Positions 271-29,130 of a stretch of 64,000 bases of DNA are shown in pieces. Each line of letters begins with the position of its first letter. Within the stretch, counting starts at the first letter, position 1. The stretch is taken from contig CAYZJA010000001.1 in NCBI GenBank assembly GCA_964479005.1, forward strand, positions 128,001 to 192,000, in the 5' to 3' direction. The stretch comes from an uncultured Candidatus Saccharibacteria bacterium. Its GTDB lineage: Bacteria; Patescibacteriota; Minisyncoccia; UBA6257. The translations under genes were made by a program, and so were the position numbers. A model generated the notes under the pieces. That model searched no databases. It saw only the letters and a program-made list of their open reading frames with translations, and was not told the origin of the DNA.

Positions 271-1047
271 GTGCTTACAAAATTTATTCAAAAATTGCGA
301 AAAAAGAATAATATGACGCAGGAATTTTTGGCGTCCGAGTTGAATATCTCTCGTCCTACTTATGTTCAAATAGAACAAGGCGAACGGGATTTAACTATCA
401 CCGAAGCGGAAAAACTAGCTTCTATTTTTGGAATTTCTTTTGAAGATTTTAGACATGGAAAAGATTCTTCAATTACCGCAAAAATTGAAAAGAATAAAAT
501 CAAACCAAAAATAGGAAAACAAGAGATAAGAATTAACGTCCCGCAAAAAAATCTTAAAAAATTTAAGGAAGTTTTACTTTATGTTTTGTCAAAAGTCGGC
601 GGTAAATCAAATGTCGGCGAAGCGGTATTATATAAACTGCTTTATTTTATTGATTTTGATTTTTACGAAAAATTTGAGGAACAATTGATTGGCGCGACAT
701 ATATTAAAAATCATTATGGGCCAACTCCTGTTGAGTTTAAAGCTATTATTGGCAATATGATTCAAAACGATGAAGTCGTAAAAGTTGAGGGAAAATATTT
801 TAATTATCCACAAAGAAAATATCTGCCAGTTAGACGGCCAGATCTTAATGTTTTATCTGGACGAGAGATAGAACATATTGATGATGTTTTGGCGCGTCTT
901 GCTGATAAAAATGCTAAAGAAATGGAAAATTACTCCCATGAAGATATTCCGTGGAAAACGGCGGAAAATGGCAAACCACTTTCCTACGAAAGTGTTTTTT
1001 ATCGTGACGAACGTTATTCTGTAAGAAATTATGAAGACGAACTTTAA
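271..1047 (+). CDS. XRE-family HTH fused to Panacea (DUF4065) domain; antitoxin-like
   Basis: N-terminus 'MTQEFLASELNISRPTYVQIEQGERDLTITEAEKLASIFGIS' is a Cro/C1-type HTH. The central 'VLYKLLYFIDFDFYEKFEEQLIGATYIKNHYGPTPVEF' matches the SocA/GepA-type Panacea fold. Its stop overlaps the start of the next ORF by 17 nt. Confidence 0.7.
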   Translation: MLTKFIQKLRKKNNMTQEFLASELNISRPTYVQIEQGERDLTITEAEKLASIFGISFEDFRHGKDSSITAKIEKNKIKPKIGKQEIRINVPQKNLKKFKEVLLYVLSKVGGKSNVGEAVLYKLLYFIDFDFYEKFEEQLIGATYIKNHYGPTPVEFKAIIGNMIQNDEVVKVEGKYFNYPQRKYLPVRRPDLNVLSGREIEHIDDVLARLADKNAKEMENYSHEDIPWKTAENGKPLSYESVFYRDERYSVRNYEDEL

Positions 1048-5410: not shown

Positions 5411-5929
5411 ATGATTTCTAAAGAAAAAAAGGAACAAATTATTAAAGAATTATCAGAACAGATAAAAAAAGCCAAGGCAATTTATTTTGCCAAATTTTTA
5501 GGACTAAAAGTTTCTGAAATGAATGAATTACGCCAAGAATTGAAAAAAGATAATGCTAAAGCGAGAGTAGTAAAAAAGAACCTGGCTAAAATTGTTTTTT
5601 CTCAGAAAGGTTATAAAGACGAGATTTCTAATGATGAAGCAAATTCTTTTATGGTTAATTTTGCTTTTGATGATCCGATTAGCACAGCTAAAGTACTTTG
5701 GAATTTTTCCAAAAAGAATGATAAATTTCAAATTTTGGGAGGAGTAACAGACGGAGTGTTCTTAGACGCAGAAAAAGTAATAAGATTAGCAAAGATACCA
5801 TCAAAAGATATACTTTTAGGTCGATTAGTTGGTTCAATAGCTTCTCCAATACAACGATTATTATATGTCTTAAATGGAAATATTCAGAAATTAGTTGTGG
5901 TATTGGAAGGCATAAAAGCAACAAAATAA
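5411..5929 (+). CDS. rplJ: 50S ribosomal protein L10
   Basis: 'ISKEKKEQIIKELSEQIKKAKAIYFAKFLGLKVSEMNELRQELKK…ARVVKKNLAKIVF' matches the L10 N-terminal region. Start placed at the ATG at 5411; the track's 5360 start adds non-L10 residues. Confidence 0.8.
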   Translation: MISKEKKEQIIKELSEQIKKAKAIYFAKFLGLKVSEMNELRQELKKDNAKARVVKKNLAKIVFSQKGYKDEISNDEANSFMVNFAFDDPISTAKVLWNFSKKNDKFQILGGVTDGVFLDAEKVIRLAKIPSKDILLGRLVGSIASPIQRLLYVLNGNIQKLVVVLEGIKATK

Positions 5930-5959
5930 TTCATTTAATAATTTAGTAATATAATTATC

Positions 5960-6394
5960 ATGGCAGAAAAAAAAGAAGAAAAAAAAGAGGAAAAGAAAGA
6001 AAAAAAAGTTTCTGAAAAATTACAGGAAATAATGAAAAAAGTTGAGGAATTGACCGTTATAGAATTGGCAGATTTAGTTAAGGCATTAGAAGATAAATTC
6101 GGTGTTTCTGCTGCTCCTCAAGCAGTAGCCTCAGCTGGCGCAGCTGGCGTTGGCGAAGGTGAAGAGAGAGCTGAAGAAAAAAAAGAAACAGTTTCTGTAA
6201 TTCTTAAAGATGCTGGTCAGGCAAAAGTGCAAATAATCAAGGAAATAAAGGAAATTATGGGTTTGGGGCTGAAAGAAGCAAAAGATTTAGTAGATGCTGC
6301 TCCAAAAGCGTTAAAAGAGAATATTTCTGTGTCTGAAGCAGAAGAAATTAAGAAAAAATTAGAAGAAGCTGGCGCTACAGTAGAGATAAAATAA
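5960..6394 (+). CDS. rplL: 50S ribosomal protein L7/L12 with Lys/Glu-rich N-terminal extension
   Basis: '[23 protein letters not shown]…' and the C-terminal domain '[56 protein letters not shown]' are diagnostic. Preceded by a (KEEKK)n extension. Confidence 0.85.
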
Positions 6395-6867: not shown

Positions 6868-6916
6868 AAAGTTATCCACAATGGGACTTGACAAGATTTA
6901 AATGTTTGCTATACTA
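6868..6916 (+). promoter_or_regulatory. conserved strong promoter module (DnaA-box-like 9-mer + -35 + extended -10)
   Basis: aagTTATCCACAatgggacTTGACAagatttaaatgtt TGcTATACT. 48 of 49 nt are identical to the minus-strand copy at 29082-29130. Core also shared with 10481-10515. Confidence 0.6.
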
Positions 6917-6919
6917 CGG

Positions 6920-6983
6920 ATGCTGTCGTTTGGAAGTATTTGTTAGCTTGCTAATGGATATGGAAGAGTGGCAGCATTTTTTT
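6920..6983 (+). ncRNA. candidate structured small RNA, copy 1 (promoter-to-terminator unit)
   Basis: AUGCUGUCG…UGGCAGCAU forms a 9-bp outer stem around an inner GUUAG-CUUG-CUAAU hairpin, ending in U7. Both stems are kept in copy 2 by compensatory substitutions. Confidence 0.45.
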
Positions 6984-10390: not shown

Positions 10391-10486
10391 ATAAATATAA
10401 AATATTTTTATCATTTAATTTATAAAGCCAATGAAAGAGTTGGCAAATCATTATTAATATCATATTTTACTTAATTAAGAGTGGAC

Positions 10487-10515
10487 TTGACAAGAAAAAA
10501 AAAGTTTGCTATTGT
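10487..10515 (+). promoter_or_regulatory. promoter (TTGACA-17-TGcTATTGT), third copy of the conserved promoter core
   Basis: 'ggacTTGACAag' and 'gtttGCTAT' are shared with the 6868 and 29130 modules. Confidence 0.5.
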
Positions 10516-10521
10516 GTTTTC

Positions 10522-10678
10522 ACGGTGGGGCTTTTATTTTAGCCCCGCAGTGGGGCTTATGAATAATATTCAAAAAAGGGGATTTCATAATTTAAACAAA
10601 ATTTCTTTTCGATTTCTTGCGTTTAGTAAAATTGAAAAAGAAGTTTTTTGAGGTTGGCGTTTTTGCGCCAACTTTTTA
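10522..10678 (+). ncRNA. structured leader or sRNA with alternative hairpins and intrinsic terminator
   Basis: GGGGCU-uuuauuuu-AGCCCC (10527-10546) overlaps AGCCCC-gcagu-GGGGCU (10541-10557), giving two mutually exclusive pairings. Later GTTGGCG-uuuuug-CGCCAAC plus U5 (10653-10677). The next gene starts at 10736. Confidence 0.4.
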
Positions 10679-10735
10679 ATATTAAAATTAATAAAAAAAA
10701 TAAATAAAAAAATAAAAATTAATAAAATAAAAAAA

Positions 10736-11998
10736 ATGAAAAAAATAATAACAATTTTAAGTACTTCCCTTTTGATGTTTGCTTTTGTAACTTCAGTTTC
10801 CGCAGCAGCTCCGAATTGGAATGTCAGTGGAACATGGATGGCAGAGCATGAGTTCGGGGGGAATACTTACTCTCATGTAAACAACATTGTTCAAGCACTA
10901 GACGGTTCCCTGACGGGGACCGGAGGATGGGATGGTACGCAAAACGGCATCCCCGTTGGTACTCCTAATACATGGGAGATAACCAACGGTTCGGTTTCTG
11001 GTAACAACATTCAATTTAACTACCAATACAATACCGTCGAGTTATGCGCCAAGGATGGAGGTATTGATGCAGTAATTAATGCTGACGGTTCTATGACTGG
11101 AACATGGCATGATGATTGTGGTACTGGACGAACTGGCGCATGGACAGTCCCAGCAGGTTCCGCAGTCTATTTAAGAACTGCAGAAATTACTTCTCCAACA
11201 TCAGGAGAAGAAGTTTCGGGAATGGTTTCATTTGATGCAATACTAACTGACAAAGATGGTGATGATAGTGTTCAATGGGCAGTTCGTCAGGGTACTTGCA
11301 CTGCAGGAATAGGAACAGTGTTTGGTAATGTAGATGGTAAATCAGATATCTACACTTGGGATCATGTCAATTTCCATGCATCAGCCGATACTTCTTCCTG
11401 GGCTCCTGGAAATTACTGTTTTGTCTTTAATCCCACAGAGAGTGCTGGAGATATAGCTATTAGAGAGACACGAGAGTTTATCCTAAAAGACACTGTAGCA
11501 CCATTGGTAACGATAGAAAGTCCTAGTGAGGGTGATGTTGTTTCTGGTACAGTTGAAATTTATGGAACTGTTGTAGAATACTATATGCTAAGTCACTACA
11601 ATATCTCGGTTTATCCAGGTGATGCCGACTTTAATGATTTCAGCAAAAGAATAGCTCAAGCAACTATTTATCGCACTACGGGTTTTAGTAATGAATTAAT
11701 TTTCGCATGGGATTCAACTGGATTTGAAGATGGCGAGTATCTAATTAGATTAGCTGCTAGAGACGCTGCTGGTAATCGTAGTTATGATGGCGATGCATAT
11801 CTAGGTGGTGATGATTCACAGCATGTGATTAGAGTAACTGTGAATAATATACCAGACCTAATTGGTCCACCGATTAATAAAGATCAATGTAAAAAAGATG
11901 GTTGGAAGATATTTGATAATCCAAGTTTTAAGAATCAGGGAGATTGTGTAAGTTATGTCCAGAGTAATGAAAATGCAAAAGGAAATAAAAATAAATAA
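10736..11998 (+). CDS. secreted protein with Ig-like beta-sandwich repeats
   Basis: Signal peptide 'MKKIITILSTSLLMFAFVTSVSAAAP'. Gly/Thr/Asp-rich beta-type composition. Noticeably GC-richer than its neighbours. A-rich leader with no SD. Confidence 0.5.
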   Translation: MKKIITILSTSLLMFAFVTSVSAAAPNWNVSGTWMAEHEFGGNTYSHVNNIVQALDGSLTGTGGWDGTQNGIPVGTPNTWEITNGSVSGNNIQFNYQYNTVELCAKDGGIDAVINADGSMTGTWHDDCGTGRTGAWTVPAGSAVYLRTAEITSPTSGEEVSGMVSFDAILTDKDGDDSVQWAVRQGTCTAGIGTVFGNVDGKSDIYTWDHVNFHASADTSSWAPGNYCFVFNPTESAGDIAIRETREFILKDTVAPLVTIESPSEGDVVSGTVEIYGTVVEYYMLSHYNISVYPGDADFNDFSKRIAQATIYRTTGFSNELIFAWDSTGFEDGEYLIRLAARDAAGNRSYDGDAYLGGDDSQHVIRVTVNNIPDLIGPPINKDQCKKDGWKIFDNPSFKNQGDCVSYVQSNENAKGNKNK

Positions 11999-12023: not shown

Positions 12024-13772
12024 ATGAATAAACAATTATTCTCTAAAACGATTTCACTTTTCTTAGTTTTTTCTTTGGTGTTCGTAGGTGTTTCAATATT
12101 TTCACCAAATAATATTGAAGCTAAAGGACAGAAACCAAATAACAAAATATCAATTTGTCATAGAACTAGTTCTGCTACTAATCCTTGGAATGTAATTAAT
12201 GTTAGTGTTAATGCTCAAGATGCTCACTTAGCTCATGGAGATTTTCTTTATGAAGGTAGTTATCCAGTGAATTCTAAAGAAGCAGAGGAATGGTGTGGCA
12301 TGACTAGATATACTTGTAATGAAAGTACTTGGCAATGTGTAATTGATAACCAAGGTCAATATTCAAGTTATGATGATTGTTCAACTGTTTGTCAGGAACC
12401 AATGGCAACTGTAACAATTTGTAAATATGACGAAGAAAGGAATCCTTTAAGTGGATGGAAAATGATTTTGAAAGGGGATTTGCAAGACCAAGTAACTGTT
12501 TTTCCTGATGGGTCAGCATATTTGTCAGGAGATTTACCATTAGAAGATTATTTATTAATGGCTTCTGGTCAATATGTTTATAGGCCTGGAACTTTAGGGG
12601 CTGAATATTCTGATGCTGGCTATACTAAGAGGAATTGTCCAGGAGATGCTACTTATTTATGTAGTGGTCCCTATACCCCATGGTTTAATGTTTTTGATAT
12701 TATAGGTATTCATAAAGGATGGTTGGGGATTATGGTTAATGACGCCGCAACTAATTGGGGTTCTTACTTTAACTCTGCTCATACTTATGCTCTGGGATAT
12801 CCTAATTATAGTGGTTCATTATCTTTTACAATTAAAGATGATGTGTATAGTGATAATTCAGGACAATTAAATGTTGATATTTATAAAGGATATACTGGGG
12901 AGACAGATGAAAATGGTTGTATAACCTTTAATGATGTTCCTTTGGAAACTTATTCTCTTGAGGAAATTCTTAAAGATGGATGGCAAAATGTTAGTGGTTT
13001 AGGACAGATTGTTATTGATGAATCTCAAGAAACTTTTGATGTGATTAATAGTGAAATTAAAAGCGAAAAAGAACTAGCATGCATAAATTCAGGTGGCACA
13101 GTTGGAACAGGTATATGCTGCAAAAGTGTAGAAGGTTTTCCAAATGATTGTGCTACAGGAGCCTGCGGTTGTTCTGCAGGAGATAGCCATGAAGTTCAGG
13201 TTTGTAATTGTCCAGCAGGCAAATGTTTTGATGGAAATTCCTGCGTAACAAAATGTGAAGAAGGAATTAATCTTCTTAAAAACGGTAGTTTCGAATATCC
13301 GGAAGTAACTAATACAAGCAAATGGCAGTTATTTCCATCAGGGACAGCTCTACTTGAATGGGTAGTTGGATGGGTTAGCGCTGCTCCATCAGACCCTCCA
13401 ACAATTGAAATACAGAAAGGCGTAGTAGTTTCTCCTAGTAATGGACTTCAAAGCATTGAATTAGATTCAGAAGCTCCAACCTATATTTCTCAAGCAGTTA
13501 ATACAGAATCTGGCTATGGATATAAATTAAGCTTTGATTTTGCAGCCAGGCCTAATACTTCAGAAGAAGATAATAAATTAGAGGTTTGGGCTGATAGTAT
13601 TCTTAAAGATAGTATTAGCAGCAATACATCTTGGCAAACAAAAACATATAATTTTAATGCTACTTCTAACCTTACGGAAATCAAATTCGTGGATATAGGA
13701 ATTCCTAATACCGATTCAATGGGTACATTATTAGATAATGTTAAATTAGAATGTGTTCCGCCGGTTCTGTAA
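12024..13772 (+). CDS. secreted surface protein (SpaA/Cna-B-like domain + C-terminal lectin-like domain)
   Basis: Signal peptide. The 'TVTICKYDEERNPLSGWKMILKGD…' domain and the C-terminal 'NGSFEYPEVT…LDNVKLECVP' domain are both paralogous to parts of the next gene. Confidence 0.55.
   Translation: MNKQLFSKTISLFLVFSLVFVGVSIFSPNNIEAKGQKPNNKISICHRTSSATNPWNVINVSVNAQDAHLAHGDFLYEGSYPVNSKEAEEWCGMTRYTCNESTWQCVIDNQGQYSSYDDCSTVCQEPMATVTICKYDEERNPLSGWKMILKGDLQDQVTVFPDGSAYLSGDLPLEDYLLMASGQYVYRPGTLGAEYSDAGYTKRNCPGDATYLCSGPYTPWFNVFDIIGIHKGWLGIMVNDAATNWGSYFNSAHTYALGYPNYSGSLSFTIKDDVYSDNSGQLNVDIYKGYTGETDENGCITFNDVPLETYSLEEILKDGWQNVSGLGQIVIDESQETFDVINSEIKSEKELACINSGGTVGTGICCKSVEGFPNDCATGACGCSAGDSHEVQVCNCPAGKCFDGNSCVTKCEEGINLLKNGSFEYPEVTNTSKWQLFPSGTALLEWVVGWVSAAPSDPPTIEIQKGVVVSPSNGLQSIELDSEAPTYISQAVNTESGYGYKLSFDFAARPNTSEEDNKLEVWADSILKDSISSNTSWQTKTYNFNATSNLTEIKFVDIGIPNTDSMGTLLDNVKLECVPPVL
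12560..12742. repeat. inter-paralog DNA repeat, copy 1
   Basis: ~180 nt, >90% identical to 16548-16730, with perfect runs of 46, 40 and 26 nt (e.g. tattctgatgctggctatactaagaggaattgtccaggagatgct). Confidence 0.8.
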
Positions 13773-13878
13773 GTTATAAATAATATCCGGCAATTACAAA
13801 AGAAAAAGTTGATAGGATTTAATGGCGAATTAACCGTTCATTTTAAATAAAAGATTAAAAAGTTAAATATATAAAAAA

Positions 13879-16800
13879 ATGAAAAAACAATTTTTCTCTA
13901 AAACATTTTCAATTTTCTTGGCACTTTCTTTTGTACTTTCTAATAGCGCAATGTTAGTGCCATTACAAGCTGAAGCTTGTGAGGAAGAAATATGCGAAGA
14001 CGTTATTGTGGTAAGTAATATAGAAGATAAGGTTTTTGATATTGCAGAAACTCTTCCCGGTGAAGCAGCTGTTCTTGCTTGGGATGATCATCCGGCATGG
14101 ACAGCGTATATTGAAGGCGCAAATTGGATTTGGAAGACAGAATATGTAGAAAATCCTGATCAAGACGAAACATATATATTTAAAAAAGATTTTGATATTG
14201 TTGGCATTCCAGATTCTGCAACATTAAAAGTTGCAACTGATAATTCGTATAGTGTTTGGGTTAACAATGTTTTGATTGGAGAAGTTATAACTGAAGATAA
14301 TCACAGTTCAACAACCCAAGATCAATATAATAATATCGTTGACTTTCATACCGGTTCAAATGAAATTAAATTTGAAGTTAAAAACTGGGCAGGAAATGCG
14401 TCACCGAAATTAAATCCTGCAGGTCTTTTGTATAGACTTGAGATTGTAAGATCTTCTTGTGAACCTCAATGTATACCTCAATCTTCTATAGAAACAGACT
14501 GTACTAATGGTTTAGATGATGACTGCGATGGTTTTATTGATAGTGAAGATTCTGATTGTCAGATGTTAATAATGGCTTCTAAAGTAATTTGTGATAATGA
14601 ATCAGATTTACCTAATTGGGGGACAGGATCTGGAGTTGACTATCCTTCATATAACATTGATCAAAACACAGCTTCGGATTATGTAGCTGAACATTCTGGT
14701 TGTTATTTAGCTTCTAATTGGTTTTTTCAATGGGGACAACAAGGTTCTGATGATTTTGGAAAAGACTTTTATGGAGAAGCTGGCAATGGCTACACTACTT
14801 TTGGGCCAACAAATGAAAATGGAGTAGCTAGTACAACAGTGGATTCTGTTACCGGTAGTTATTTGGAATTAAGGGAAGTTCTGCAGCAAGGTTATATTCC
14901 TTTTACGTATGACCAATCACATAAATCTAATGATAATAATATTTCTGCAGAATTTTATTGCCACAATGATATTCTCAATTATGATAACTGGGATTATATA
15001 AAAAATCCTCAATTAGGAATTACTCATTATTGCGTTGGATTTAATGCATTAATCGAACAAGAAGAACCAGAACCTGTTTGTGGAAATGAAATTATAGAAA
15101 CTGGTGAACAATGTGATCCACCTTCAACCACTGCTCCTAATTCTACTGATGAATATTTCTGTGACCAAAATTGTAATTTAGTTCCTATCTATCATTCTCT
15201 GGATGGTTGTCCAAAAAATCAAATCCTAGAATTTATTCAGTCTTATCAAATTCATTCAACTAGTACGACAGAAGTTATTATTCCTGTGAGTGGTAGCGAT
15301 ACATATAAGTTTGAAGTTAAAGGAACTTTTTATCCTACTCAAAATGGAAAAAATGAGAATTTCCTATCAGATGCCGCCTATACGACTGAAGATGGCTGGG
15401 TTTCAACTTCTACAAAATACGGAATTAAAGGCATACCACCTGATTATGCTGCCCATGCTTTATTAGGTGATTTAGGATTAGGGGCTGGAGTAATTAATTG
15501 GGGAGATTATGATTCTTCTCATGAATATGATTTCTCTTACACAATTCCTTCAGGCGCTACTTCTACTCAATTTGTGATAGGTGATAGATGGGATAATTGG
15601 TTTATACCAGATGATATTAGTTGGAATAATCAAGGCGGAATGAAAGATAATCTTGGAAATTTGACTTTAGATGTTTATGAGTGTAAGCCAATCCAAGCTA
15701 GATGTGATCCTAAGTTAGAATTAGTTATGAATGGCGATTTTGAGAGTCCTGAAGTGACTGATCTAGTAAAAAAATGGGGTATTTTTCCATCAGGGACAAC
15801 CGATTTAGAATGGTTAATTAATTGGAGAGAAATTTGGCCTTCAGCACCAAAAATAGCAAATCTTGAAATTCAGAAAAGTTATTATACTCCAGTAATAGCT
15901 CCTGTAGTTCCTGGAGATCCAGATCAATATGCTGAGTTAGATACTGATTGGCATGGTCCAGGTGGACCTTCTGGTGAACCAGCCTCAGTAGCTATTTCTC
16001 AAGATATTCCAACAATTATAGGGGAAACTTATAGATTAAGTTTTGATTTTTCACCACGACCATATACTGATTTAGAACAGAATCATTTAAAGGGTTTTGT
16101 TGATAGCGCTGAATTATTTGATATTTCTGCTGATGGTTCTGGTTTAACAGATACTTTATGGAATCAATATTCTGATAATTTTGTTGCTACAAGTTCAATA
16201 ACAAACATTAAATTTACTGATTATGGTACACCAGACTCTTTAGGCACTTTCTTAGATAATGTTAGCGTAAGATGTGTTCCTCAGGACGAACCTACTATGT
16301 ATCATTGTAATGAGGAATGGCAATGTATAGCAGATCCTGAAGGTGAATATAATACTGATAATTGTGACAATCAATGTATTAAACCTGGAACATCCACAGT
16401 TACTATTTGTAAATATAATGAACAAGAAGAACCTTTAAGAGGTTGGAAGATGATACTTAAAGGTGATAGGTATGATACAGTGCCTGTTTTTCCAGATGGG
16501 CAAAATTATTCTTCAAATCCTTTGCTATTAGGTGATTACTTAATTCAGGCTTCTGGTCAATATTTATATAGACCAGGAACACCTGGCGCTGAGTATTCTG
16601 ATGCTGGCTATACTAAGAGGAATTGTCCAGGAGATGCTGATTATTTATGCAGTGGAGATTATACCCCATGGTTTAATGTTTTTGATATTATAGGTATTCA
16701 TCAAGGATGGTTGGGGATTATGGTTAATGATAATCTTACTGATTGGGGGTATTTTACTTCTGACCATACTTATACTCTTGGCTATCCTGGTTATAGTGGT

Positions 16801-18201
16801 TCGTTCACTTTTACTATAAAGGATGATGTATATTCAGATAATAGTGGATCATTAACAGTTAAAATCTATAAAGGCTATGTAGGGGAAACTGGAGAAAAAG
16901 GATGTGTTACATTTAATGGTGTTCCTTATGGCGAGTATATAGTTGATGAAGATCTTCAAAGTGGTTGGATAAATCAAGATGGTTTAGGAAATGTTACAGT
17001 AGATGACCTAGAAGAAACATTTGATGTTGTCAATATTCCACCAGAAGGACAGATAGGTTCTTTAACTGTTTGTAAATATAGAGATCACGAACCATTTGGG
17101 GAATACAATACAGGTATTGATACACCTCTAACTTGGGAGATGAGAATTATTGGACCTAATAGTTATGATCAATTGTACGAAACTGATCCTCAGAATGGAT
17201 GCAAAACAATAAATAATTTAGAATATGGCCAATATGTAGTTTCTGAAGAATTGAAGATTGGTTGGGATCAAACTTATCCTCTTGATCCTAATACCCATAC
17301 CATTGATATAAATGGCGGTAATTCTAATCCATCAGTATATTTCTTGAATTATAAAACAATTGATAATGGTGGAACAAAATATGCTTGTAATGCAGAAGGG
17401 CAATGTATAGAAAATGAAGGGGGTAATTATACCACTTCTAATTGTGATGAAGAATGTAGACCATATCCATATACTTGTAATTCATCTACCTCAGAATGTG
17501 TACGTGATGTTCATGGCCAATTTGGTTTATTGCAAGGTTGTGAGGATGCTTGTAGGGTATCTACTCCATTAGGAGGTCAATATGCAATATTGGGAACAGT
17601 TTTGGGTGCTGCTACTGAAAAGGAAGAAGAACCTTGCGGTCTTTATCTTTTGGAATACATAAAGCTTGGAGGTGATAATAATCCTGAGGAAGTGAAGAAA
17701 TTACAATATTTCTTAAATGAATATCTTGGCATTAATTTAGAGATAACAGGAGTTTATAATCAAGCTACTTATCAAGAAGTTATGAGATTCCAGCTTCTTT
17801 TGAACGATGAAATTTTGGCTCCTTGGGTTGAAGTTAATTGTCTTCCATCTAGTAATATAGCTACTGGTTATGTTTATCGAACAACACAATGGAAAATAAA
17901 TATGATTGTTTGTCCAGAATTGAACCTTCCAGTACCGAATTTATATGATGAAACTTGTAAATATATTAGTCTATATCCAGGAGAAGGTGTAGTTGCTGGA
18001 GCAGCTACTTCTACAGTGGGTGGAACTAATGGAACTACCACAACTACCTCAACTACAACTCCTGAAACAATAGGAGATACTACAACAACTGTTCCTCAAG
18101 ATACTGGGGATGAGCAGTCACAAAATTGGATTTGGGTTTTGATTGGACTTTTAGTGATTGGCGGCGCAGCTTATTTGGTTTATCAAACTAGACAAGTATA
18201 A
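13879..18201 (+). CDS. giant (1440 aa) cell-surface protein with C-terminal TM anchor
   Basis: Signal peptide, multiple Cys-rich beta domains, two regions ~70% identical in protein to the 12024 gene product, a Thr-rich stalk (TTTTSTTTPETIGDTTTT), and a C-terminal helix 'WIWVLIGLLVIGGAAYLVY'. Confidence 0.6.
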   Translation: MKKQFFSKTFSIFLALSFVLSNSAMLVPLQAEACEEEICEDVIVVSNIEDKVFDIAETLPGEAAVLAWDDHPAWTAYIEGANWIWKTEYVENPDQDETYIFKKDFDIVGIPDSATLKVATDNSYSVWVNNVLIGEVITEDNHSSTTQDQYNNIVDFHTGSNEIKFEVKNWAGNASPKLNPAGLLYRLEIVRSSCEPQCIPQSSIETDCTNGLDDDCDGFIDSEDSDCQMLIMASKVICDNESDLPNWGTGSGVDYPSYNIDQNTASDYVAEHSGCYLASNWFFQWGQQGSDDFGKDFYGEAGNGYTTFGPTNENGVASTTVDSVTGSYLELREVLQQGYIPFTYDQSHKSNDNNISAEFYCHNDILNYDNWDYIKNPQLGITHYCVGFNALIEQEEPEPVCGNEIIETGEQCDPPSTTAPNSTDEYFCDQNCNLVPIYHSLDGCPKNQILEFIQSYQIHSTSTTEVIIPVSGSDTYKFEVKGTFYPTQNGKNENFLSDAAYTTEDGWVSTSTKYGIKGIPPDYAAHALLGDLGLGAGVINWGDYDSSHEYDFSYTIPSGATSTQFVIGDRWDNWFIPDDISWNNQGGMKDNLGNLTLDVYECKPIQARCDPKLELVMNGDFESPEVTDLVKKWGIFPSGTTDLEWLINWREIWPSAPKIANLEIQKSYYTPVIAPVVPGDPDQYAELDTDWHGPGGPSGEPASVAISQDIPTIIGETYRLSFDFSPRPYTDLEQNHLKGFVDSAELFDISADGSGLTDTLWNQYSDNFVATSSITNIKFTDYGTPDSLGTFLDNVSVRCVPQDEPTMYHCNEEWQCIADPEGEYNTDNCDNQCIKPGTSTVTICKYNEQEEPLRGWKMILKGDRYDTVPVFPDGQNYSSNPLLLGDYLIQASGQYLYRPGTPGAEYSDAGYTKRNCPGDADYLCSGDYTPWFNVFDIIGIHQGWLGIMVNDNLTDWGYFTSDHTYTLGYPGYSGSFTFTIKDDVYSDNSGSLTVKIYKGYVGETGEKGCVTFNGVPYGEYIVDEDLQSGWINQDGLGNVTVDDLEETFDVVNIPPEGQIGSLTVCKYRDHEPFGEYNTGIDTPLTWEMRIIGPNSYDQLYETDPQNGCKTINNLEYGQYVVSEELKIGWDQTYPLDPNTHTIDINGGNSNPSVYFLNYKTIDNGGTKYACNAEGQCIENEGGNYTTSNCDEECRPYPYTCNSSTSECVRDVHGQFGLLQGCEDACRVSTPLGGQYAILGTVLGAATEKEEEPCGLYLLEYIKLGGDNNPEEVKKLQYFLNEYLGINLEITGVYNQATYQEVMRFQLLLNDEILAPWVEVNCLPSSNIATGYVYRTTQWKINMIVCPELNLPVPNLYDETCKYISLYPGEGVVAGAATSTVGGTNGTTTTTSTTTPETIGDTTTTVPQDTGDEQSQNWIWVLIGLLVIGGAAYLVYQTRQV
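16548..16730. repeat. inter-paralog DNA repeat, copy 2
   Basis: Matches 12560-12742. Confidence 0.8.
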
Positions 18202-18373
18202 ATATCAGACAAGATTGAATCAAAAAACAGTGCTGATTTAGCATTTTTTGCGTCAATTTTTAGTAGTTGGACCTAAATATGAAATTTAGGTAGTAAAAAC
18301 TAATAGGTCGATCTTTGGTAAAAACCAAAGTAAAAAAATCAAAAATAACAAATTAAATTAATTAAAAATTAAA

Positions 18374-18889
18374 ATGAAAAAGATATTAATTGGTTTAACG
18401 ATCATTACATTGGCTGCAATGGTTGCTAGTCCTGCTATGGCTTACTACTGGCCAATGCCAATGGAATCCAGTGACGTAACAGTCAATAATGATAGTTACT
18501 CGAGGATTCGCAATAACGTAACAGTTGTTGCTAAAACCGGCGATAACACTGCTAATACTGGCTCGGCAAGTTTCGGTGGTTTGGGTAGTACAATTCAGAC
18601 TGGTAATGCTGTCGCTGAAGCGACAGTAGTAACTGTTGCCAACACAAATTACACCAGAATTAAGGCTCCTTGCACTAATTGCGACGGCGATGTCACTGTT
18701 AACAATGATGATAGTGACGCTTTTGTCAGGAATAGAGTTAGGGTTATTGCCGACACCGGCGATAACACTGCTAATACTGGCTCGGCATGTTTAGGTGGTG
18801 AGGGTAGTTTGATTGTAACAGGCAGTGCATGGGCTGAAGGAAATGTTGTTACTGTTACTAACACTAACATAACCAGAATTCGCAGATAG
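18374..18889 (+). CDS. secreted protein with two tandem ~50-aa repeats
   Basis: Signal peptide. Repeats 'NNVTVVAKTGDNTANTGSASFGGLGSTIQTGNAVAEATVVTVANTNYTRI' and 'NRVRVIADTGDNTANTGSACLGGEGSLIVTGSAWAEGNVVTVTNTNITRI'. Confidence 0.55.
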   Translation: MKKILIGLTIITLAAMVASPAMAYYWPMPMESSDVTVNNDSYSRIRNNVTVVAKTGDNTANTGSASFGGLGSTIQTGNAVAEATVVTVANTNYTRIKAPCTNCDGDVTVNNDDSDAFVRNRVRVIADTGDNTANTGSACLGGEGSLIVTGSAWAEGNVVTVTNTNITRIRR

Positions 18890-29081: not shown

Positions 29082-29130
29082 TTGGTAGTATAGCAAACAT
29101 TTAAGTCTTGTCAAGTCCCATTGTGGATAA
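29082..29130 (-). promoter_or_regulatory. conserved promoter module, copy 2 (DnaA-box-like + -35 + extended -10)
   Basis: The reverse complement reads aagTTATCCACAatgggacTTGACAagacttaaatgttTGcTATACTac. Confidence 0.6.

Follow-up and report, generated by a model that had tools for sequence, protein, structure and literature searches.

A putative cis-regulatory leader with a short open reading frame and a premature terminator ahead of surface-protein genes in Patescibacteria

The leader and the genes downstream

We analyzed a stretch of 64,000 nucleotides (nt) from an uncultured Candidatus Saccharibacteria bacterium (contig CAYZJA010000001.1, positions 128,001 to 192,000; hereafter the window), a Patescibacteria genome segment with a G+C content of 32%, and within it the region 10487-10735, which lies directly ahead of a gene for a secreted protein. 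Patescibacteria live in attachment to host cells and rely on surface proteins, and their gene regulation is barely known. The region very probably consists of a promoter and a cis-regulatory 5' leader with a premature terminator. Our preferred reading, to which we assign a probability of roughly 0.55 on sequence-level evidence, is that a ribosome on a short open reading frame (ORF) in the leader would act as the antiterminator of a surface-protein operon. A preliminary description of the same DNA had already listed the promoter, the competing hairpins and the terminator, and all of these sequence features are present, far beyond chance.

The leader is preceded by a near-consensus extended -10 promoter. 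Its -35 hexamer TTGACA (10487-10492, + strand) is contained in a shared core, GGACTTGACAAGA, and is kept in the related versions at loci L020, L018, L094 and L109. A 17-nt spacer with an A9 run leads to the extended -10 element TGcTATTGT (10507-10515, +), composed of TG at 10507-10508 and the -10 hexamer TATTGT at 10510-10515; its counterparts in relatives read TGCTATTGT, or TGATATCAT / TGATATTGT. The core CTTGACAAG-N-TTGCTAT was found at exactly three sites in the 64 kb (6887+, 10486+ and 29115-) and never in 100 shuffles. Likewise, among all TTGAC[AT]-N16-18-TAnnnT sites of the window, only these three have GGACTTGACAAGA...GTTTGCTAT in common. The leader promoter is thus indeed the third copy of a repeated core, as originally described. 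By the spacing rule, transcription is predicted to start at the A at 10522 (+), 7 nt past the -10 hexamer and within 0-3 nt of the start of the 5' hairpin. The predicted transcript would extend from about 10522 to 10677/80, roughly 156-159 nt, and as a prediction agrees with the ~155-nt RNA proposed earlier. This RNA is predicted to fold at -54 kcal/mol (z = -6.5 versus shuffles).

The 5' end of the leader contains three short segments, GGGGCT (10527-10532), AGCCCC (10541-10546) and GGGGCT (10552-10557), all of them exact, in a combined pattern that occurs once where 0 occurrences are expected. The proposal that AGCCCC could pair with either GGGGCU is therefore sound. Pairing with the upstream segment gives a 5'-terminal hairpin, hairpin 1 (10522-10551, +; about -21 kcal/mol by folding), in whose core GGUGGGGCU (10524-10532) pairs with AGCCCCGC (10541-10548) around the loop UUUAUUUU. 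Pairing with the downstream segment gives an alternative hairpin (10534-10566, +), in which AGCCCC (10541-46):GGGGCU (10552-57) is extended by UUAUUU (10534-39):GAAUAA (10561-66). In this fold, the AUG start of the short ORF is buried together with a GGGG element.

This short leader ORF (10559-10651, +; MNNIQKRGFHNLNKISFRFLAFSKIEKEVF) begins at the first ATG of the transcript and comprises 30 codons, with a TGA stop at 10649-10651; an in-frame GTG at 10550 would prepend MGL. A G-rich Shine-Dalgarno (SD)-like element (10552-10555, +) lies 3 nt 5' of the ATG, closer than optimal. The TGA overlaps the first stem bases of an intrinsic terminator (10650-10677, +), which has the form GAGGUUGGCGU-UUUU-GCGCCAACUUU followed by a U tract. 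Its stem (10650-10675) has 11 pairs, 5 of them G-C, with a core at 10653-10659 / 10666-10672 and a U5 at 10673-10677, and it ranks among the two best terminator-like sites in 10 kb. The terminator ends 58 nt before the ATG at 10736, close to the ~60 nt first given for it.

Between the terminator and the gene lies an A-rich, unstructured spacer without an SD sequence (10678-10735, +), which is normal for this genome since most of its genes lack one. Among the long ORFs of the window, too, most have no SD sequence and an A-rich stretch ahead of them. No promoter-like site was found between the terminator and the ATG (10676-10735). TAAAAT at 10723-10728 was considered as a hidden spacer promoter and rejected, as it has no -35 element and is not conserved in relatives.

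The regulated gene (10736-11998, +) encodes a 420-residue secreted protein that is modeled as tandem beta-sandwich domains of immunoglobulin (Ig)/fibronectin type III (FN3) type and has a Big_7 match. The predicted structure has a mean pLDDT (per-residue model confidence) of 80.4, and its fold matches FN3/Ig tandems and the S-layer protein Sap. The N-terminus, MKKIITILSTSLLMFAFVTSVSA|AAP, reads as a typical Sec signal peptide, in agreement with the secretion claimed for this product from the outset. We found 338 homologues, and the named ones belong to Patescibacteria or Paceibacterota. Further downstream, at 12024-18201 (+), are genes for a 582-residue DUF642 secreted protein and a 1440-residue secreted protein. 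The intergenic gaps are 25 and 106 nt long and contain no convincing + strand terminator and no strong promoter; judged from the sequence, both genes are probably co-transcribed with the 10736 gene in the same operon.

Versions of the leader in relatives

An identical downstream protein is encoded on five contigs (L001-L005), whose leader differs from that of the window at two positions, both in the A-rich spacer. A Joint Genome Institute (JGI) contig, Ga0309839_1000001 (551,616 bp), is near-identical to the window as well. Since L001-L005 are near-identical to the window, they are uninformative for conservation. More distant versions were obtained by three routes: homologues of the downstream protein, contig look-ups for individual homologues, and a search with the short-ORF peptides. 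Altogether, six distinct leader versions were compared, namely those of the window, L100, L020/L093, L018/L091/L092, L094 and L109/L110, plus a fragment at L006 that includes the 3' half of the terminator.

Other searches returned no additional copies. BLAST of the leader element against the window matched only the shared promoter core and revealed no paralogue, and nhmmer with a five-sequence profile found no further leader copy in ~110 loci and the window. Among GTDB species genomes, a search by the GH113 neighbour yielded no relative of the leader, and the pattern GGTGGGGCTNTTATTTT-N(88-118)-TTGGCG yielded seven chance matches in unrelated phyla. Similarly, a scan of IMG/VR with two leader patterns found nothing. 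An Rfam scan, suggested early on as a check, gave no family match for the leader at gathering score across the whole window. When the leader region was searched at E <= 10, only sub-threshold, terminator-driven matches appeared (DapZ, Phe_leader, sraA); the Phe_leader match, for example, scored 25 bits versus 55 and arises from the terminator. Phase variation at the A9, A6 or T6 runs was also considered and rejected, as their length is constant among six strains. A T6 versus T5 difference between lineages comes with other changes.

All six leader versions lie directly 5' of a gene for a secreted Ig-like protein with domains also found in the 10736 product. On the upstream side, the neighbours vary: a GH113 gene (+) precedes the leader of the window, a gene on the minus strand that of L018, and a hairpin-RNA gene those of L094 and L109. 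Because the leader always precedes the same gene family and the spacer holds no promoter-like site, we consider it cis-linked rather than a free small RNA (sRNA). The preliminary description had left the choice between a stand-alone sRNA and an attenuator-type leader of the secreted-protein gene. The latter is the option that stands: the promoter and the leader transcript, with its predicted start, lie directly upstream of the gene without a second promoter, and the six-version linkage, the promoter-free spacer and a riboswitch aptamer in the leader of one relative all back it. The former did not hold up, as a position independent of the downstream gene was observed in none of the six versions.

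Comparison across relatives showed that every version retains hairpin 1, with pairs that are shifted or of the wobble type (GGGGCU/AGCCUC, GGGCUU/AAGCCC, GGCUC/GGGCC; 87% of cells paired). It is the favoured fold in every version and leaves the GGGG element and the AUG free. In each of the five folded versions, blocking the 5' arm of hairpin 1 lets the alternative hairpin form (at -13.3 kcal/mol for the window), and 80% of its cells are paired across relatives, one double change included. In this comparison with orthologs, which had been recommended, both pairings are thus retained, covariation tests being powerless on these sequences. The terminator is conserved in all relatives, with 96% of cells paired. 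The RNAalifold consensus contains three helices only: hairpin 1, the terminator and a weak A/U-rich helix. Hairpins 2 and 3 of the window were rejected as conserved structure, being absent from relatives, and the middle of the leader where they lie is largely deleted in L018, L094 and L100.

These observations bear on how the alternative hairpins are to be understood. They had been taken for a classic antiterminator/anti-antiterminator pair, an assignment that we abandon. Both helices lie ~100 nt 5' of the terminator and neither touches it; no conserved helix competing with a terminator arm, as in a trp-type antiterminator, was found by RNAalifold among the relatives; L018 and L094 have a degenerate second GGGGCU (AAAGGUUU); and the pairing partners are ~150 nt apart in L109. 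The downstream GGGGCU occupies the would-be ribosome-binding site of the short ORF, and the alternative hairpins are therefore better read as a sequestor and an anti-sequestor that would occlude or expose the start of that ORF. Hairpin 1, located at the extreme 5' end, may in addition stabilise the mRNA.

The short ORF has a counterpart in each of the other versions, with lengths of 30 residues in L109, 31 in L094, 33 in L018, 41 in L020 and 43-45 in L100. In 5/5 tested versions, the ATG frame is the sole frame open from start to terminator; the probabilities of a shuffled sequence doing the same are 0.049, 0.14, 0.058, 0.27 and 0.40. The frame persists through sequence change. Owing to a 5-nt indel, the window and L020 read the same nucleotides in different frames, both of which are open, and L094, with ATA in place of the ATG, has acquired another in-frame ATG two codons downstream. 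The stop codon remains close to the terminator stem. It lies at -1 to -4 nt in the window, ~2 nt before the stem in L109, and +24 to +48 nt from the stem start in L018, L020, L094 and L100, where in the first three the end of the U tract supplies its TAA, and in L100 it sits slightly further on. All three codon positions vary to the same extent (0.40 / 0.35 / 0.35), from which it appears that the open frame rather than the peptide sequence is under maintenance.

The peptides themselves resemble each other little. Gene callers predicted the short ORF (P0121 and P0122, the former called by JGI), a search with the short-ORF peptides retrieved only two database clusters, and no Pfam match was found. 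The N-terminal halves are loosely similar (MNNI/MNYT ... K/R-rich), and the C-terminal halves are read in different frames among relatives. The peptide of the window contains 5 Phe in 30 residues, but neither the Phe positions nor the frame are conserved, and the clustered, conserved regulatory codons of trp-type leaders are missing. A Phe-sensing attenuator was accordingly rejected, given the lack of conserved Phe codons and a set of genes that is not biosynthetic.

The most informative relative is L109, which carries a riboswitch. Its leader is otherwise the same as that of the window, with hairpin 1 followed by AAGGGGCUUAUG and a short ORF that differs at 3/30 residues. Between hairpin 1 and the GGGG element, ~150 nt have been inserted, and positions 5913-5997 match an aptamer for cyclic di-GMP (c-di-GMP) of the c-di-GMP-II class (Rfam RF01786; 63.9 bits versus a gathering score of 53.5, E = 5e-14, full-length match). 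This aptamer does not bring a terminator with it. The riboswitch platform of L109 targets AAGGGGCUUAUG, the same as the SD-like element of the window. When P1 was enforced in constraint folding, AAGGGG, the SD-like sequence, came out 0.73-0.97 unpaired; when P1 was prevented, CCUUUGAUG paired with CAUCAAGGGG, and the SD-like element was ~0.2 unpaired. The models suggest that the aptamer gates the start of the short ORF, which is separated from the main gene by 165 nt and one terminator. Because the sensor appears to act on the short-ORF start, L109 offers the strongest argument for control of the terminator by short-ORF translation.

Five locus groups (L109/L110, L038, L059, L077 and L088) have c-di-GMP-II aptamers ahead of a homologue of the 10736 protein. 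Those outside L109/L110 also score above gathering (L038 86-169, L059 299-382, L077 961-1045, L088 1319-1401), and in all four a conventional terminator overlaps the 3' side of the aptamer. This distribution suggests that, in several lineages, the genes of the Ig-like surface-protein family form a c-di-GMP regulon. A crude motif search confined to the 64 kb of the window detected no c-di-GMP enzymes there. We found no paper on c-di-GMP-II riboswitches or leader-ORF attenuators in Patescibacteria.

Ribosome-dependent read-through and competing explanations

Taken together, these elements would form a translation-controlled switch. RNA synthesis would start at ~10522 from the extended -10 promoter, and the first 30 nt would fold as the 5'-terminal hairpin. 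Access to the start of the 30-codon ORF (AUG 10559) would be set by the two exclusive hairpins, hairpin 1 freeing the GGGG element and the AUG and the AGCCCC:GGGGCU pairing burying them. The ORF would be translated up to its UGA, whose last two bases are within the terminator foot. Without a ribosome behind the polymerase, the terminator would form and an RNA of ~156 nt would be released. With a ribosome close behind, the 5' arm of the terminator would be covered, allowing read-through across the A-rich spacer into the genes for Ig-like surface proteins. If this is true, these proteins are controlled by premature termination according to whether a ribosome follows the polymerase.

Masking of a terminator by a ribosome is known from the pyrBI and pyrE leaders of E. 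coli, where a closely coupled ribosome blocks the terminator hairpin, UTP is sensed through polymerase pausing and pyrimidine genes are controlled. The pyrBI leader ORF runs through the terminator, as do those of L018, L020, L094 and L100, and the pyrE upstream ORF ends just before it, as do those of the window and L109. On the other hand, the input in L109 would be c-di-GMP rather than UTP, and the target is a surface-protein operon. Similarly, in Streptococcus gallolyticus a promoter, a leader ORF and a premature stem-loop terminator precede the surface-structure operon pil1, and leader peptides with a stop in or after the terminator turn on pilus transcription (Danne et al. 2014, PMC3894217). 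As proposed here, a stop in or near the pil1 terminator lets ribosomes block the hairpin irrespective of peptide sequence, and natural variants differ in the position of the stop relative to the terminator. The differences are that pil1 undergoes slippage at GCAGA repeats within one strain, whereas no repeat tract varied among our six near-identical strains; that the window leader adds a 5' hairpin with alternative pairing and that of a relative adds a riboswitch; and that the two systems belong to different phyla and have non-homologous sequences. With its terminator, an ORF stop near, in or just past that terminator, and a frame kept regardless of the peptide (the last seen with moderate power), the leader would by sequence-level criteria belong to these ribosome-mediated terminator-masking attenuators. 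The attenuators of trp, his and phe operons share with it a leader peptide and a terminator, but for the window leader an antiterminator (2:3) helix, a conserved run of regulatory codons and biosynthetic genes downstream are all lacking.

For the arrangement at L109, the nearest analogue is the B12 riboswitch of ppe2 in Mycobacterium tuberculosis, which controls an upstream ORF and relays its effect by translation termination-reinitiation (Kipkorir et al. 2024, PMC11260477). The L109 aptamer, too, appears to control initiation at a short upstream ORF, the translation of which downstream expression would need. Its relay would instead be the masking of an intrinsic terminator, the aptamer is of the c-di-GMP-II class and not B12, and the window itself is without an aptamer, which also sets it apart from c-di-GMP-II riboswitches (RF01786) in general; the L109 aptamer deviates from these by lacking the usual adjoining terminator. 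If the proposed relay is true, it is a natural case of a riboswitch acting via a leader ORF on an intrinsic terminator.

The efficacy of a ribosome near a terminator has been measured in E. coli, where a stop codon 5 bp before tR2 reduced termination from ~90% to <10% (PMC4824070). Several points weigh against such an effect here. According to the same source, terminators placed in the first 100 bp of E. coli coding sequences remain efficient (PMC4824070). The short ORF measures only 91 nt from AUG to stem, and being so short it would require very tight coupling or polymerase pausing. To our knowledge, neither is documented for Patescibacteria. The start signals are weak, with the GGGG element only 3 nt from the AUG and the AUG itself in a stem of the lowest-energy fold. 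In addition, the transcription start, the translation of the short ORF and the termination are all predictions. Only six related versions were compared, and the open-frame statistic ranges from ~1e-4 to 1e-2 depending on their independence; covariation tests have no power. Finally, the gene family has another leader type (L038, L059, L077 and L088), in which the short ORF is located past the riboswitch terminator and therefore cannot mask it.

Other explanations of the leader account for some of its features. It could be a switch made of RNA only, in which a protein, an sRNA, a ligand or temperature acts on the hairpins or on the terminator and the short ORF is incidental and untranslated. The persistence of both hairpin 1 and its alternative throughout the versions (87% and 80% of cells paired), a peptide without codon-level selection, the weak initiation signals and the RNA sensors that relatives do carry in this leader would all fit. 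We nonetheless regard it as unlikely, as no helix links the alternative hairpins to the terminator, no antiterminator is conserved, and the window leader lacks an Rfam aptamer even at E <= 10. It would also leave unexplained a frame that survives indels, replaces its start codon and stops at the terminator, and the aptamer platform in L109 targets precisely the start region of the short ORF. Improbable, in our view, is a leader without regulation, in which the 5' hairpin does no more than stabilise the mRNA, and expression is set by a terminator that constitutively stops part of the transcripts. Hairpins at the extreme 5' end are typical of mRNA stabilisers such as those of ompA and aprE, hairpin 1 occupies that position in all versions, and as it is always favoured the default state would be fixed; a conserved short ORF ending at the terminator and the acquisition of a c-di-GMP aptamer by the same leader would then have no explanation.

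Still less probable is a trans-acting sRNA of ~156 nt with its own promoter and terminator, next to a 10736 gene that is transcribed separately. Its promoter is strong and of the same type as those of two hairpin-RNA genes, the terminator is good and the fold is stable (z = -6.5), and the terminated leader may well accumulate. A free sRNA would hardly lie immediately 5' of the same gene family at every locus despite varied upstream genes and with no promoter-like site in the spacer. Moreover, the central part of the RNA lacks structural conservation and is mostly missing from L018, L094 and L100, a cis-acting riboswitch is inserted in L109, and no second copy was found in the window or in ~110 loci. 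The least probable of the explanations considered is a genuine small-protein gene of 30-45 codons with its own terminator, whose product matters rather than its translation. The open frame is conserved, the N-terminal halves are loosely similar, gene callers picked it up (P0121, P0122), and other leader types also contain short ORFs, among whose peptides an LP[TVI] motif recurs; against this stand the equal variability of the three codon positions, C-terminal halves read in different frames, a length that varies from 30 to 45 residues, and the lack of a Pfam match and of more than two database clusters.

Leaders of the wider gene family and linked features

Genes of the surface-protein family more often have a terminator 20-75 nt before their ATG than other genes do (16/59 versus 11/132, p = 0.0012). 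Similarly, an ATG is located 6-8 nt past the -10 element at 9/17 family promoter sites, compared with 10/135 elsewhere (p = 1.4e-5). In 9/9 leaders of the wider family, the short-ORF stop lies <=15 nt from the start of the terminator stem, with a shuffle-probability product of 5e-6.

A broader model, which we put forward tentatively and which may well prove wrong, is a modular relay shared by Patescibacteria surface-protein operons. Interchangeable sensors, either a c-di-GMP-II aptamer or competing 5' hairpins, would gate a tiny upstream ORF, leaderless in many lineages, and the ribosome would be the antiterminator at the terminator where this ORF ends. If true, this would imply tight transcription-translation coupling in ultra-small, largely SD-free bacteria and would make the Ig-like surface proteins a c-di-GMP regulon, in a phylum whose regulation is almost unexplored. 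The occurrence of the same scaffold fitted with a c-di-GMP-II riboswitch in relatives provides a testable model of surface-protein switching. The promoter, terminator and leader are also compact parts for the genetic tools under construction for Patescibacteria.

A second leader type, unrelated in sequence to the one in the window, was observed at L007, L008, L012, L044, L046, L057, L065, L084 and L095, among others. It has a strong promoter and a short ORF, often starting with ATGGGAC (MG[LQ]), with its stop at the foot of an intrinsic terminator; a strong AAAGGAGGTGA SD sequence follows the terminator ahead of the main gene. With the ATG 6-8 nt past the -10 element, the short ORF would be effectively leaderless. 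Leaders of this type gave no Rfam family match. At L052 (2300-2500), ahead of another homologue, an 8-bp long-range helix, ACGCCUAA / UUAGGCGU, encloses an SD sequence and most of a 27-codon short ORF and is followed by a U tract; a second terminator is located at the ORF stop, and then an A-rich spacer as in the window. Short-ORF peptides of very different leaders (L007, L057, L024, L088, L077 and L094) contain an LP[TVI] motif, with the instances ILPTQ, NLPVQ, LPTQ, RLPTI, GLPII and ILPRS. This recurrence could reflect chance, an RNA-level constraint or a peptide function.

The other two copies of the promoter core in the window belong to two hairpin-RNA genes of ~65 nt (6872-6983, +; 29130-29019, -). 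Such a gene is also present at L094 (1-115) and L109 (5720-5810), in both cases directly upstream of the leader. The RNAs consist of a long hairpin with an apical UAGCUUGCUA and a U7 terminator; the two window copies show compensatory stem changes, and none matched Rfam even at E <= 1. A role for them as trans-regulators of the leader was rejected, as duplex energies were no better than those of shuffles in the window, L094 and L109. A DnaA-box-like TTATCCACA lies 7 nt 5' of the -35 element of the hairpin-RNA genes in the window and in L094. It occurs three times in the window (804-812, 6872-6880 and 29122-29130) versus 0.75 expected, and again at L012 1733 and L052 2254, 30-45 nt 5' of leader promoters. 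It may be a site for DnaA or another factor at strong promoters.

Within the window, the + strand carries 34/36 long ORFs and GC skew is positive throughout. Past the operon, at 18228-18374, a degenerate copy of the leader terminator (GCATTTTTTGCGTCAATTTTTAG) and an A-rich spacer lie between the 1440-residue protein gene and a gene at 18375 whose product begins with an MKK... signal peptide; the nhmmer match to this copy is weak (E = 0.32).

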